From a virus (Duplodnaviria; Heunggongvirae; Uroviricota; Caudoviricetes), in the IMG/VR virus record IMGVR_UViG_2534681626_000009, positions 1 to 5,298 of that record: a DNA stretch of 5,298 bases. One strand, given 5' to 3'. The first letter of the stretch is position 1; every line of letters starts with the position of its first letter. The notes under the pieces were generated by a model, which worked only from the letters and a program-made list of their open reading frames with translations, was not told the DNA's origin and searched no databases. Shown here piece after piece: positions 1 through 5,298 of the stretch. The position numbers were made by a program, and so were the translations under genes.

Positions 1-717
1 ACTATCACTGAAATTAATACGCCAACCCGTGGCTGGGTTTCGGTAACTAATCCTGCTGCGGCTACTGTTGGCTCTCCGGCAGAAACTGATGCTGAGTTAC
101 GTATCCGCCAGTCGCAAAGTGTTGCGTTGCCATCAATAACCCCATTTGAAGCACTGGATGGTGCTGTTTCTAATGTTACCGGTGTAACCCGCCACAAACT
201 CTATGAAAACGATACTGGTTCGGAGGACGGTAACGGGTTACCGCCACACTCTGTTGCTGTAATTGTGGATGGCGGTGATGTGACGGATATTGCTCAGGCT
301 ATTAGAGGGAATAAAGGCCAGGGGACAGCCACTCACGGTAGAACATCCGTTACGGTTCCGGATAAATACGGCAATCCCCATGTAATCAAATTCTCGCGTT
401 CCAGTGATGTACCTGTTTATGCCCGGATTAAATTAAAAGTTTTTACGGGTTATACCTCACAGATAGGGCAGCAGATCCAGCAGGCTATTTCCGACTATAT
501 CAATAGTCTGATGATTGGTGATTCGGTCCTTTTAAGTCGCATTTACTCACCGGCGAATCTTGGCGTGGTGAGTGGCGGGAATGCACGCTATTACGATATT
601 CAGGAACTGACGATTGGGAAATCCCCGGGGGCTTTGTCGTCATCAAACATTGATATCAGATACAACGAATCTGCGTCCTGTACACCGGAAAATATCGTTA
701 TAACGGTGGAGTCATGA
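1..717 (+). CDS. Baseplate J-like protein (P2 gpJ / Mu gp47 family), C-terminal portion; 5' end lies outside the window
   Basis: The reading frame is open from base 1 with no stop until TGA at 715-717; the ORF track starts at a TTG at 127 only because the window truncates the gene. Family assignment is from gene order (immediately upstream of a tail protein I gene and a tail-fibre gene) and general resemblance, not a search. The stop overlaps the next start as ATGA at 714-717. Confidence 0.7.
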   Translation, partial: TITEINTPTRGWVSVTNPAAATVGSPAETDAELRIRQSQSVALPSITPFEALDGAVSNVTGVTRHKLYENDTGSEDGNGLPPHSVAVIVDGGDVTDIAQAIRGNKGQGTATHGRTSVTVPDKYGNPHVIKFSRSSDVPVYARIKLKVFTGYTSQIGQQIQQAISDYINSLMIGDSVLLSRIYSPANLGVVSGGNARYYDIQELTIGKSPGALSSSNIDIRYNESASCTPENIVITVES

Positions 718-1394
718 GCAAATACACCGAACTGATCACGAACTACCACGCCACCAAACCTAAATTTCTTGCACATGTTGATCTGATGACCCGGCCGCTT
801 ATTGATGTTGCGGCTGCCACCAGAGGGCTGATTACTGCATTTGATATTGACTCTGCGGTTGGTGTGCAACTTGACATTCTTGGATTGTGGATCGGACGTA
901 GCCGTGTTGTCAGCCAGCCTATCTCAGGTGTCTATTTCAGCTGGGATACCGACGGGCTTGGATATGATCATGGTGTATGGCAGGGGCCATACGATCCTGA
1001 TTCCGGATACATGTACCTCAGCGATGAAACTTATCGTGTCATCCTTAAAGCGAAGATTGCGATTAATAACTGGGACGGACGGAATGATTCGCTTCCAGCA
1101 ATTCTTGACGCGGCGACAGCAGGATCCGGACTGCGAATGCAGATAGTCGATAACCAGGACATGACGATATCGGTCTGGCTCTTTCCTGATACTGATATTT
1201 CAGATGTATCGCGTGAGTTAATTGCTGCAATTAAACAGGGATATCTCACAGTAAAAGCCGCCGGGGTTTGGGCGGGTGGCATTGAAACACCTTCGGTGGA
1301 AACTCCATCGGAAGGTTCAAAATTTTTTGGTTTTGATATGGATAACGAATTCATCAGTGGTTTTGATGTAGGGGCATGGGGAGTATTACTCTGA
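714..1394 (+). CDS. Phage tail protein I (P2 gpI / Mu gp48-like baseplate-tail-fibre connector)
   Basis: 226-aa ORF sitting between the J-like gene and the tail-fibre gene, the conserved J-I-H order of P2/Mu-type baseplate modules. Start ATG overlaps the upstream stop (ATGA); stop TGA at 1392-1394 overlaps the next start (TGATG). Confidence 0.75.
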   Translation: MSKYTELITNYHATKPKFLAHVDLMTRPLIDVAAATRGLITAFDIDSAVGVQLDILGLWIGRSRVVSQPISGVYFSWDTDGLGYDHGVWQGPYDPDSGYMYLSDETYRVILKAKIAINNWDGRNDSLPAILDAATAGSGLRMQIVDNQDMTISVWLFPDTDISDVSRELIAAIKQGYLTVKAAGVWAGGIETPSVETPSEGSKFFGFDMDNEFISGFDVGAWGVLL

Positions 1395-2026
1395 TGGCGA
1401 AAAATGACTTTAAAGCGTTTGCAACTGATCGGAATGCCAATGTTATGTCGCAGGAGGAATGGGAAGCGTTGCCTGCGCTTTTATCCGGATTTACAGCAGG
1501 GAAAGCATCCAGTGCGCAAGTCAATAAGGTTATTCGGCAGGCCAGCTTTATTGCTGCAGCTCTGGCCCAGTTTGTAAGTGACAAAACGCAACGGGATGTG
1601 CTTGATAATGGTGATCTGCCCGGTTTTGTTGAATTGCTGGGATCGGGGTTTGCTGTTGAATACCTGAGCCGCAAGAATCCGTTTGGTGATATCAAATCGG
1701 ATGGCGCGGTGAAAACGGCTCTCGAAAACCTTGGTTTGGGAGAAGGTGCTAACTGGGTTATGTTACCTGGAGGAATGATAATTCAGCGTGTTTATCTTGG
1801 ATTTCCTGTCGGCACCAATGTAAGACACATAACTTTCCCCCGGTCGTTTACAACAACGAACTATTCAATCTCAATTAACTGGAATGATATCGGTACTGCA
1901 ACAACTGAAACACAATCTCCAGCAAATGTGGCGGTTGTTCATCAAACAAAATCATTAACAGGGGCCAGCATCTGGCAGGCAGGTCCCGGGGGATTTAATG
2001 TGGACATTATAGCGGTGGGGGATTGA
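1394..2026 (+). CDS. stfP: Tail fibre protein: constant N-terminal region (to about 1747) fused to variable C-terminal receptor-binding module A
   Basis: I placed the start at ATG 1394 rather than the track's 1376 because of the TGATG overlap with the upstream stop and a GGGGAG about 12 nt upstream. The N-terminal portion (118 aa from this start, 124 aa from the track start) is identical to the N-terminus of the reverse-strand ORF 3030..3905, and the two diverge exactly at the crossover site. The symbol is tentative, based on order and size matching e14 stfP as I recall it (about 209 aa). Confidence 0.75.
1719..1744. other. Site-specific recombination crossover site, hix/gix/cix/pix-like (left site)
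   Basis: The sequence CTCTCGAAAACC-TT-GGTTTGGGAGAA has imperfect dyad symmetry (9 of 12 positions per half) around a central TT at 1731-1732. It carries the GAAAACC..GGTTT core that I recall from Hin/Gin/Cin/Pin sites (hixL from memory: TTCTTGAAAACCAAGGTTTTTGATAA). It sits exactly where the two tail-fibre variants diverge. Confidence 0.7.
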
Positions 2027-2027
2027 T

Positions 2028-2456
2028 ATGTACGTATGGAGCGCTAAAGCAAATGGCTTTTTCCCCATAGCGGAGAAAGAAAAATTTGAGGCATCAGGTA
2101 TGTGGCCTGATGATGGTGTAATAGTCAGTGAAGAAGAACATAAAAAGTTATTTATGGATATTCCACCAGGAAAACAGATTGGAACACAGAATGGAAAACC
2201 AGCACTGATAGATATTCCTCAGCCGACCAAAAAGGAATTAATCGCTATTGCTGAAGTTAAAAAATCCCAATTACGGGAAAAAGCTGACAGTGAAATATCC
2301 TGGCGTCAGGATGCTGTTGATGCTGATATCGCAACTGATGAAGAAACTTCAACTCTCACCGAATGGAAGAAATACCGTGTGCTGCTGATGCGTGTTGATA
2401 CTTCAACAGCACCCGATATTGAATGGCCTACGCCTCCGGCAGTTCAGGCCAGATGA
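2028..2456 (+). CDS. tfaP: Tail fibre assembly protein (Tfa / Mu U-like chaperone) for module A
   Basis: 142-aa ORF starting 1 nt after the tail-fibre stop (TGA-T-ATG) with GGGG about 8 nt upstream. The C-terminal motif [11 protein letters not shown] is shared with the convergent partner ORF. Position directly after a tail-fibre variable region is typical of Tfa genes. Symbol tentative. Confidence 0.75.
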
Positions 2457-3033
2457 CATCCGGCGCGGTGCTGGTATCTGTTACCGTCACCGCGTCAATG
2501 TAATCCAGCACGGCGTTAAGTCGGGTTGTTTCTGCCTGCGTCAGCTTCCGCCCGGCCTGTAATTTCAGTTGAATCAGACTGATGGAAGCCATTGCAGTAT
2601 CCATCAGCGACTGGCGCTGTGCTTCTGCTGCATCTACTGCGGCGCTATGCTGTGCCTCGGTATCCGTCACCCATTTCTCACCATTCCATTTATCGTATGG
2701 CGTTAACGGGGCGATAGTGGTTGTATTATCAGGGTAATCCCCCGGAGCTGTGATTTCTTTTGATTCTCCCGTTTCGGTGTTATAGACAACTTCACCGCGA
2801 TGATCTGGCACATATTCCCATGAGTTAAAATCTGCCGAACGGCAGATTGCATAACCAGCCTTATGTGTGCCAGGAGCATCTAAACAGGAATATGCGGGGA
2901 TACCGACACCCACAGCAAGATATTCAATTGATGCAGAAATATACTCCCGTGTCTCACTGTCATAGTTATAAACGGTAATCTCTCCTGCCTTTGTGGCAAT
3001 AAATTTATTATTTAAGATGGCGTTATACATCAT
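2428..3033 (-). CDS. tfaE: Tail fibre assembly protein (Tfa / Mu U'-like chaperone) for module B
   Basis: 201-aa ORF on the minus strand whose start overlaps the stop of the upstream minus-strand tail-fibre ORF (ATGA at 3030-3033). C-terminal motif [11 protein letters not shown]. It is convergent with the plus-strand Tfa gene and overlaps it by 29 bp (2428..2456). Symbol tentative, from the size match to e14 tfaE (about 200 aa). Confidence 0.75.
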
Positions 3034-3905
3034 GCAGCCCTCACAATGTAATTAAATGAAATATTACGTGGGCGTGTCTCTGCTGCACCGACAATACTGG
3101 TACTCAACCCCGTTGCCGTTCGTTTGTTATTTTTATTTCCTTCAATCAAACAGTTGTAATCATCATTACCAATTAACGAATTGGTGGCATCAATACTGTC
3201 CGGGGACAAGGCATTAGTTGTGGAACTTAAAGTCAGCATCTCGTCTGAACTTGGAAGATTTTTTAATGGTGTTTCATTGCGTGAAATACCCGCGTAAAAA
3301 AAGGACTCATGCCTGTGAGCTTCAAAAGAGTCATCCTGAAGACTTAGCAAGGCTCGCCCCGCATCCACTCCACGTCCATCATCCCAGCCACGAATAAATT
3401 CACCGCGTAAATCAGGCAATTTATTGGTCGGGTAAGCCTTTGCCAGTTCCGGGTATTCTTCAGCAGAAAAAGCCGCACCATTGCATTTCAGCCAGCCTGT
3501 TGGCGGAGTGGCTGAAGGCCACGGAACAGGGACACCAACAGGTAATGCAGAGCCTTCTCCCAAACCAAGGTTTTCGAGAGCCGTTTTCACCGCGCCATCC
3601 GATTTGATATCACCAAACGGATTCTTGCGGCTCAGGTATTCAACAGCAAACCCCGATCCCAGCAATTCAACAAAACCGGGCAGATCACCATTATCAAGCA
3701 CATCCCGTTGCGTTTTGTCACTTACAAACTGGGCCAGAGCTGCAGCAATAAAGCTGGCCTGCCGAATAACCTTATTGACTTGCGCACTGGATGCTTTCCC
3801 TGCTGTAAATCCGGATAAAAGCGCAGGCAACGCTTCCCATTCCTCCTGCGACATAACATTGGCATTCCGATCAGTTGCAAACGCTTTAAAGTCATTTTTC
3901 GCCAT
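3030..3905 (-). CDS. stfE: Tail fibre protein: same constant N-terminal region fused to alternative variable C-terminal module B (carries the conserved tail-fibre tip motif)
   Basis: Minus-strand ORF whose N-terminal portion is identical to that of 1394..2026, followed by a different 173-aa C-terminus containing [10 protein letters not shown]...YPELAKAYP...[17 protein letters not shown], which I recognise as the conserved motif of T-even gp37 / lambda Stf / Mu S / P2 H fibre tips. Start chosen at the mirror of 1394. Symbol tentative. Confidence 0.7.
3555..3580. other. Site-specific recombination crossover site, hix/gix/cix/pix-like (right site, inverted orientation)
   Basis: TTCTCCCAAACC-AA-GGTTTTCGAGAG is the exact reverse complement of the left site. 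The inverted orientation is what invertase-mediated inversion, rather than deletion, requires. Confidence 0.7.
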
Positions 3906-4585
3906 CAGAGTAATACTCCCCATGCCCCTACATCAAAACCACTGATGAATTCGTTATCCATATCAAAACCAAAAAATTTTGAACCTTCCGATGGAGTTTC
4001 CACCGAAGGTGTTTCAATGCCACCCGCCCAAACCCCGGCGGCTTTTACTGTGAGATATCCCTGTTTAATTGCAGCAATTAACTCACGCGATACATCTGAA
4101 ATATCAGTATCAGGAAAGAGCCAGACCGATATCGTCATGTCCTGGTTATCGACTATCTGCATTCGCAGTCCGGATCCTGCTGTCGCCGCGTCAAGAATTG
4201 CTGGAAGCGAATCATTCCGTCCGTCCCAGTTATTAATCGCAATCTTCGCTTTAAGGATGACACGATAAGTTTCATCGCTGAGGTACATGTATCCGGAATC
4301 AGGATCGTATGGCCCCTGCCATACACCATGATCATATCCAAGCCCGTCGGTATCCCAGCTGAAATAGACACCTGAGATAGGCTGGCTGACAACACGGCTA
4401 CGTCCGATCCACAATCCAAGAATGTCAAGTTGCACACCAACCGCAGAGTCAATATCAAATGCAGTAATCAGCCCTCTGGTGGCAGCCGCAACATCAATAA
4501 GCGGCCGGGTCATCAGATCAACATGTGCAAGAAATTTAGGTTTGGTGGCGTGGTAGTTCGTGATCAGTTCGGTGTATTTGCTCAT
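3905..4585 (-). CDS. Phage tail protein I, mirrored second copy (identical to 714..1394)
   Basis: Translation is identical to the plus-strand copy and it lies in the right inverted-repeat arm. Whether this is a real second copy or an assembly fold-back is uncertain. Confidence 0.55.
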
Positions 4586-5298
4586 GACTCCACCGTTATA
4601 ACGATATTTTCCGGTGTACAGGACGCAGATTCGTTGTATCTGATATCAATGTTTGATGACGACAAAGCCCCCGGGGATTTCCCAATCGTCAGTTCCTGAA
4701 TATCGTAATAGCGTGCATTCCCGCCACTCACCACGCCAAGATTCGCCGGTGAGTAAATGCGACTTAAAAGGACCGAATCACCAATCATCAGACTATTGAT
4801 ATAGTCGGAAATAGCCTGCTGGATCTGCTGCCCTATCTGTGAGGTATAACCCGTAAAAACTTTTAATTTAATCCGGGCATAAACAGGTACATCACTGGAA
4901 CGCGAGAATTTGATTACATGGGGATTGCCGTATTTATCCGGAACCGTAACGGATGTTCTACCGTGAGTGGCTGTCCCCTGGCCTTTATTCCCTCTAATAG
5001 CCTGAGCAATATCCGTCACATCACCGCCATCCACAATTACAGCAACAGAGTGTGGCGGTAACCCGTTACCGTCCTCCGAACCAGTATCGTTTTCATAGAG
5101 TTTGTGGCGGGTTACACCGGTAACATTAGAAACAGCACCATCCAGTGCTTCAAATGGGGTTATTGATGGCAACGCAACACTTTGCGACTGGCGGATACGT
5201 AACTCAGCATCAGTTTCTGCCGGAGAGCCAACAGTAGCCGCAGCAGGATTAGTTACCGAAACCCAGCCACGGGTTGGCGTATTAATTTCAGTGATAGT
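4582..5298 (-). CDS. Baseplate J-like protein, mirrored second copy (identical to 1..717); 5' end outside the window
   Basis: Reverse complement of 1..717, with the frame open to the window edge. Same uncertainty as the other mirrored copy. Confidence 0.55.
   Translation of the reverse strand, partial: TITEINTPTRGWVSVTNPAAATVGSPAETDAELRIRQSQSVALPSITPFEALDGAVSNVTGVTRHKLYENDTGSEDGNGLPPHSVAVIVDGGDVTDIAQAIRGNKGQGTATHGRTSVTVPDKYGNPHVIKFSRSSDVPVYARIKLKVFTGYTSQIGQQIQQAISDYINSLMIGDSVLLSRIYSPANLGVVSGGNARYYDIQELTIGKSPGALSSSNIDIRYNESASCTPENIVITVES

Follow-up and report, generated by a model that had tools for sequence, protein, structure and literature searches.

Gene content of the locus and its mirrored arms

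The window, by which we mean the entire 5,298-nt stretch of DNA analysed here, corresponds from end to end to contig APYR01000052.1 (5298 bp) of the draft E. coli assembly GCA_000358795.2. Its six real open reading frames match the Pfam families Baseplate_J, DUF2612, Gp53-like_C (weakly), Caudo_TAP (twice) and Collar (Table 1). The baseplate J fragment at 1-717 matches annotated 399-aa baseplate J genes in the comparison loci L001, L002 and L020. The exact DUF2612 protein of the window is present in many assemblies, and among the 10 places listed for it there is no other APYR contig. Downstream of these genes, two alternative fibre C-termini with their cognate chaperones lie opposed within one segment, Sv and U on the plus strand and Sv' and U' on the minus strand, with the 3' ends of U and U' overlapping by 29 nt. 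The Sv' part is joined in the window to a mirrored copy of the constant part Sc, giving a fused 291-aa reading frame (3030-3905), and resolved genomes with the segment in the other orientation encode an identical Sc-Sv' protein as a real gene. The longest-ORF versions of the two fibre proteins (216 aa and 297 aa) have no exact database match because gene callers start the genes at 1394 and 3905 (210 aa and 291 aa).

The segment is enclosed by two arms of 1746 nt each (1-1746 and 3553-5298), which are 100% complementary to one another and separated by a gap of 1806 nt. Both ends of the window are arm ends, and no unique sequence anchors the right arm. The original prediction had described a mirrored constant region in the position where the invertase gene of such a system is expected; a mirrored region is indeed found there, 3553-5298 being the 100% reverse complement of 1-1746, but the description was too narrow in that the mirrored part also duplicates the DUF2612 gene and the partial baseplate J gene.

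Table 1. Features of the window, with the basis on which each was assigned
Feature	Position	Strand	Basis
Baseplate J/gp47, 3' part	1-717	+	Pfam Baseplate_J; cut by contig end; genuine left flank
DUF2612 / baseplate wedge, 226 aa	714-1394	+	Pfam PF11041, E=2.8e-46; genuine
Tail-fibre gene as it stands in the window, 210 aa	1394-2026	+	Gene call; weak Gp53-like_C match below the Pfam cut-off
Constant fibre part Sc, 118 codons	1394-1746	+	Both fibre ORFs share the N-terminus to ...GLGEG
Left 26-bp crossover site, CTCTCGAAAACC TT GGTTTGGGAGAA	1719-1744	+	Genuine; complete-genome matches start or stop here
Variable fibre part Sv	1747-2026	+	C-terminal part of the 210-aa fibre gene
Chaperone U (tail-fibre assembly), 142 aa, partner of Sv	2028-2456	+	Pfam Caudo_TAP, E=3.4e-34
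Alternative chaperone U', 200 aa, partner of Sv'	2428-3030	-	Pfam Caudo_TAP, E=5e-32; gene call
Alternative variable fibre part Sv', tail-collar domain	3030-3552	-	Pfam Collar, E=3e-15
Right 26-bp crossover site as written, TTCTCCCAAACC AA GGTTTTCGAGAG	3555-3580	+	Alignments with L001, L002, L004 and L020
Artefactual mirror, reverse complement of 1-1730 (Sc, DUF2612, partial baseplate J)	3569-5298	-	Inverted arms without mismatch that reach both contig ends
Second copy of the DUF2612 wedge gene	3905-4585	-	Inside the mirror
Second copy of the partial baseplate J gene	4582-5298	-	Inside the mirror

The earlier observation that no reading frame in the window has the layout of a serine recombinase holds, as none of the six real ORFs matches Pfam Resolvase. 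A search of all six frames of the window with a genuine Pin protein (tblastn) gave nothing better than a chance-level match of 22 aa (E=1.1), and the DNA of the pin locus (blastn-short) found only chance matches of 9-13 nt in the window. A hidden or degenerate recombinase within the window is thus ruled out by Pfam and by tblastn and blastn-short with Pin and the pin locus. As for the recombinational enhancer, which in Din-type switches depends on Fis and lies in cis in the 5' portion of the invertase gene, the degenerate Fis motif GNNYRNNWNNYRNNC has 53 one-mismatch sites in the window and is too degenerate to discriminate. One pair of such sites with 48-bp spacing (736/784, mirrored at 4515/4563) occurs at about the chance level, and in the pin gene of a sibling the same degenerate motif, too weak to decide the matter, forms a pair 50 bp apart at +101/+151.

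Crossover sites and the point of departure

The segment is bounded by two 26-bp sites in inverted orientation, each made up of 12-bp half-sites around a 2-bp core, a layout that agrees with the sites tabulated in PMC4134206; the repeat arms reach 2 nt past these sites into the segment. Switches of the Din type have a small serine invertase gene, coding for about 180-190 aa with Resolvase and HTH_7 domains, directly beyond one of the sites. The segment is inverted by this enzyme, which cuts each 26-bp site at its central dinucleotide; the inner halves are exchanged, and either Sv and U or Sv' and U' come to stand behind the constant N-terminus of the fibre (PMC3798978, PMC4134206). In resolved relatives of the window the right site reads TTCTCCCAAACC AA CGTTTATGAAAA; its inner half is identical to that of the left site, and the outer halves of the two sites agree at 8 of 12 positions. 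In the window itself the right site is genuine over 3555-3568, its inner half plus AA core; at 3569-3580, where genuine DNA carries the pin-side half-site CGTTTATGAAAA as the outer half, it has the Sc-side half-site GGTTTTCGAGAG instead. Neither the letters of the hix site nor the WGS accession prefixes returned a match in literature searches.

We located the departure from genuine sequence by alignment with two resolved loci, namely L004, a metagenome contig that is 99.83% identical to the window over 1-3573, and APYS01000133.1 (L011/L020), whose arm is 100% identical to that of the window and which matches 1726-5298 at 99.86% identity. The window agrees with both through position 3568, the end of the AA core, and identity collapses from 3569: past this point the window continues with GGTTTTCGAGAG followed by the mirrored Sc, whereas the genuine loci continue with CGTTTATGAAAA, a spacer and pin. 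The break between 3568 and 3569 therefore coincides with the strand-exchange dinucleotide, exactly the place at which a path that passes from one orientation of the segment to the other would turn. Compared with the resolved loci, the mirror at 3569-5298 occupies the place of pin together with its half-site and short spacer. The contig is a chimera that combines both orientations of the segment, with the junction at the crossover core. The absence of an invertase from it is an artefact of assembly rather than biology, with no counterpart in the real genome.

The locus in resolved relatives, sibling assemblies and complete genomes

The expectation from which the original prediction set out, that the invertase gene adjoins one crossover site, is correct for tail-fibre switches of the Pin/Gin type, and the gene lies at the outer site in every resolved locus that we fetched. 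A gene of the Resolvase family stands outside the site in all fetched loci that are resolved through the outer site, the intact or contig-cut gene being found in L001, L002, L004, L009-L018 and L020-L024; in L003, the phage record ON470579.1 of the same tail type, it is truncated, with an annotated 315-bp 'DNA invertase' fragment. This adjacency is independent of the phage backbone, as it recurs with the tail module seen here, in a P2-like phage, in a Mu-like phage and in a lambdoid remnant. In NZ_LR890651.1 and NZ_LR882978.1 the gene, annotated pinE and coding for a 184-aa site-specific recombinase, begins no more than 30 bp beyond the Sv' gene. The 184-aa product matches Pfam Resolvase (E=1.5e-51 in L001) together with HTH_7, and an intact gene of this length and domain composition lies just outside the site in APYS01000133.1, the contig whose arm is 100% identical to that of the window. 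The Pin protein of L020 matches the structure of Mu Gin (3UJ3) over residues 1-181 at E=6.7e-94. It contains QAGRL, with the Gln, Arg and Leu that are described as conserved among Fis-dependent invertases (PMC3798978). The sequence of the Pin protein is given as MLIGYVRVSTNDQNTDLQRNALNCAGCELIF...

The APY* assemblies, which we take to be siblings from their neighbouring accession numbers and near-identical sequence, break repeatedly at this locus. APYP01000141.1 is a fold-back of 5248 bp with 1721-nt arms, each arm being an exact suffix of the arm of the window and the centre differing from that of the window at one position. APYQ01000151.1 is a fold-back of 4424 bp; its perfect repeat measures 1282 nt and stops 54 nt short of one contig end, leaving these unpaired. 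The arms thus differ in length (1746, 1721 and about 1300 nt) on identical sequence, and these contigs therefore end without a fixed sequence boundary. Of the remaining siblings, APYN01000049.1 (171.8 kb) stops exactly at the crossover core, ending in ...TTCTCCCAAACCAA, APYL01000151.1 (1852 bp) is approximately the segment alone, and APYS01000133.1 resolves the locus with pin, showing it once within a 76-kb context. In unrelated runs, Logan contigs likewise span exactly from core to core, one of them (L006) in 16 samples. Comparable behaviour is documented for related switches: about half of all reads of E. coli EC958 have the tail-fibre segment of a prophage in inverted form, and this gave spurious extra contigs bounded by the 26-bp sites, leading the authors to warn of artefactual duplications (PMC4134206); clonal K-12 cultures contain the e14 pinE segment in both orientations (PMC4272514).

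Among 5,426 complete E. coli genomes none holds the whole window at one place at a coverage of at least 80%. The matches in complete genomes cover either 1-3573 or 1726/2394-5298. The 1806-bp segment itself (at least 80%) is held by 48 complete genomes, and the segment together with pin was found in 13 genomes in one orientation and in 33 in the other; as 48, 13 and 33 were counted in separate searches, the resulting 46 of 48 with pin is approximate. Both orientations are thus found among complete genomes, and both fused fibre proteins have been called as genes in resolved assemblies.

Probable origin of the fold-back and comparison with known switches

In light of these observations we consider it highly probable that the window is a fold-back (hairpin) contig formed at an ordinary invertible tail-fibre segment of the Din type (Hin, Gin, Cin, Pin) in an E. 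coli prophage, assembled from DNA that held both orientations of the segment. Perfect arms reach both contig ends and the turn lies at a recombination site; the structure is missing from finished genomes and the locus is resolved normally elsewhere. The mirror, the exact switch point, the pin gene in near-identical resolved loci and the recurrent assembly breaks at this place are direct observations. The order on the real chromosome would be baseplate J, DUF2612, Sc, site, Sv, U, U', Sv', site, pin. Sequenced DNA with the 1.8-kb segment in both orientations would yield reads that join Sc to Sv and reads that join Sc to Sv'. The assembler may then have entered by the left flank, crossed Sc and the segment, and at the right-hand crossover site taken the branch of the other orientation on the opposite strand, reading Sv'-site-rc(Sc) rather than Sv'-site-pin, so that the path would have left through the same left flank as its reverse complement. 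Every local junction in the window is genuine, and only the path as a whole corresponds to no real molecule. The invertase gene and any enhancer of its own would lie on another contig of the same assembly, and the end of this pin-bearing contig would read CGTTTATGAAAATGCAG... / (CCAAACCAA)CGTTTATGAAAATGCAGAAATAACAAG..., with the 184-aa ORF and probably the 936-aa SIR2_2 gene behind it. From the siblings we infer that pin is probably present in GCA_000358795.2 itself.

Since the Sc-Sv and the Sc-Sv' junctions both occur in the contig, both were present in the data, which suggests that the switch was active in the sequenced culture; the structure of the contig likewise points to a mixture of orientations, which probably arose by active inversion in that culture. 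If the switch was active, the segment is not a locked orphan, which was one of three possibilities raised earlier to account for the missing invertase and which also sits poorly with the occurrence of both orientations among complete genomes. Another of the three, that the true right flank was lost to a fold-back assembly, is the one that the data support, given the departure at the crossover core and the resolved sibling with pin. It leaves no need for the locked orphan or for the last of the three, a switch driven in trans.

The explanation that competes best with a single switching locus, though still an improbable one, is that the contig is the same assembly artefact but owes the two orientations to two near-identical copies of the prophage or cassette, fixed in opposite orientations in one genome, and not to switching within the culture; the assembler would have collapsed the copies and folded back, and the invertase or invertases would lie elsewhere in the assembly. 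Such a situation is conceivable in that E. coli genomes often hold several related cassettes, the number of matching places having a median of 2 and a maximum of 10 per genome, and that the same 1.8-kb cassette, at least 99.5% identical, occurs in P2-like, Mu-like and lambdoid backbones as well as in the phage backbone seen here. However, because the arms are 100% identical over 1746 nt that include baseplate J and DUF2612, two full copies of the tail module would be needed, whereas the resolved sibling contig shows a single one; moreover, mixed orientation in clonal cultures is the documented norm (PMC4272514, PMC4134206).

Considerably less probable is a prophage that lacks a functional adjacent invertase, its segment being inverted in trans by a Din invertase of the host and the fold-back hiding a degraded or missing pin. 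Prophage Phi4 of EC958 offers a precedent, as it inverts despite a truncated invertase, presumably in trans (PMC4134206); the invertase fragment of L003 is compatible with such a state, as are the approximately 2 of 48 segment-holding complete genomes that the segment-plus-pin queries left unmatched. Against this stands the intact gene of the sibling with the 100% identical arm, and likewise that of L004 and of all ten loci in one fetched set.

We give hardly any credence to a real palindrome, in which the tail module stands in inverted duplicate on both sides of the segment, itself a locked orphan with no adjacent invertase: the one thing that speaks for it is the contig as deposited, in a form seen in three assemblies, but its absence from all 5,426 complete genomes, the unequal arms of the three fold-back contigs of identical sequence, the switch point at exactly the strand-exchange dinucleotide and the normally resolved locus of the sibling all argue otherwise, and a perfect 1.7-kb inverted repeat with 1.8-kb spacing would be recombinationally unstable. 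Just as hard to credit is such a palindrome, real in this strain and in two sibling isolates, in which the duplicated module replaces pin and the two identical sites could still be switched in trans.

The preferred reading, a fold-back at a single switching locus, carries little biological weight, the invertase being at its expected place in resolved copies. Its interest is one of method, namely that sequencing a mixed culture with an invertible segment gives rise to fold-back contigs as well as to contigs terminated at the core and free-standing segment contigs. Scans that take such contigs at face value would report "missing" flanking genes and "mirrored" genes, and a perfect inverted repeat that reaches both ends of a contig is a cheap flag for the fold-back artefact.

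Among artefacts of related form, the window resembles the SMRTbell adapter hairpins mentioned in PMC4134206 in that its ends are their own reverse complement; however, those hairpins turn at a point, with no spacer or the adapter only, whereas here the spacer is 1806 nt long. An unremoved SMRTbell adapter hairpin from PacBio sequencing was rejected as the source, the 1806 nt between the arms being genuine asymmetric sequence and the turn lying at the recombination core. A further parallel is EC958 (Forde et al. 2014; PMC4134206), where reads of the other orientation likewise gave an extra or misjoined contig with its boundaries at the 26-bp sites. That product was a separate long-read contig with normal flanks, whereas in the window the left flank stands on both sides and the pin flank is missing.

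As to the switch itself, the locus is comparable to the P segment of e14 with pinE in E. coli K-12, the G segment of Mu with gin and the C segment of P1 with cin, in all of which a constant fibre N-terminus is joined at a 26-bp site to either of two opposed C-termini. It shares with the Din family a dedicated Caudo_TAP chaperone for each alternative C-terminus, 26-bp sites built as 12 + 2 + 12 with a TT/AA core (compare Table 3 of PMC4134206), an adjacent gene that in resolved relatives is annotated pinE and matches Gin as described above, and the occurrence of both orientations in nature. It departs from the family in that the window is without pin, and this solely from assembly. The upstream tail module, which is here of the baseplate J / DUF2612 type, sets it apart from Mu, P1 and e14, yet this is no difference in kind. 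The underlying system is a standard, already known Pin-type tail-fibre switch, and the membership of the locus in the Din family is not in doubt.

Prophage contexts of the invertible cassette

Comparison of the fetched relatives (L-numbered loci) placed the invertible 1.8-kb cassette (window 1726-3573), at an identity of at least 99.5%, behind very different tail modules and fibre N-termini. Judged from these sequence comparisons, the cassette behaves as a module swapped among unrelated prophages, with the crossover site as the boundary of the swap. Among the matches listed, three further loci (L031, L035 and L037) encode an identical DUF2612 baseplate wedge protein and the same tail module, followed by a single fibre gene and a single chaperone; these loci have neither an opposed second fibre/chaperone set nor an invertase, and therefore fixed, non-invertible forms of the tail module exist. 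Downstream of the chaperone, L035 has an integrase gene and L031 has unrelated genes.

Features of the relative loci
Feature	Locus	Coordinates	Remarks
Cassette host loci	L012, L017		P2-like
Cassette host locus	L016		Mu-like
Cassette host loci	L009, L014		lambdoid remnant
Loci with one fibre and one chaperone	L031, L035, L037	2681-3833 in each
SIR2_2 gene	L020	9017-11827	also in L009-L011, L013, L014, L021, L022
Switch region	L003	8196-8935	phage record ON470579.1; tail type same as window's
Rearranged stretch	L010	6630-7575	GCA_047977725.1, ABXZSK010000001.1; counterpart of window 2685-3568
Contigs ending at or near the crossover core	L006, L005, L008, L025, L039

Regions flanking the switch

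In the resolved copies, the gene that comes after pin (the serine invertase gene), at the prophage edge, encodes a 936-aa product carrying a SIR2_2 domain (PF13289) and may be a prophage-borne defence gene; next to it are host genes whose products are a response regulator and a periplasmic binding protein. At the switch of ON470579.1, deposited as a 'complete phage genome', the annotation shows no more than a tail-fibre fragment of 168 bp and a 'DNA invertase' fragment of 315 bp; this switch may have decayed. As this record continues into host genes, namely those for a yfhH-like regulator and phosphatidylglycerophosphatase C, it contains host flank.

A flipped stretch within the switch of L010

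Sequence comparison of L010 (a 715-kb contig) with its near-identical relative L011 revealed that the stretch tabulated for L010 lies flipped, with both junctions reciprocal and each at a TT/AA dinucleotide (...CATTTCTCACCA TT GGTTTGGGAGAA... and ...GATAAATGG AA GGTTTTCGAGAG...). The pattern suggests that an invertase inverted the DNA between the crossover site beside Sc, the constant fibre N-terminus, and a secondary site within the U' chaperone gene (about window 2673-2696), which is a poor match to the crossover site. The inversion breaks the U' gene in two and would join the fibre gene to antisense sequence; the arrangement was seen at least in L010, among the matches listed. The convergent chaperone genes U and U' share 29 nt at their 3' ends (window 2428-2456), and their C-terminal peptides (14 residues each) are alike despite being encoded on opposite strands.

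Contig ends at the crossover core

Many independent short-read contigs stop at the crossover core or a few bases from it (...TTCTCCCAAACCAA or TTGGTTTGGGAGAA...), the end of L039 being judged from gene coordinates only. Looking for contig ends at this motif could be an inexpensive way to detect active invertible segments in draft assemblies.
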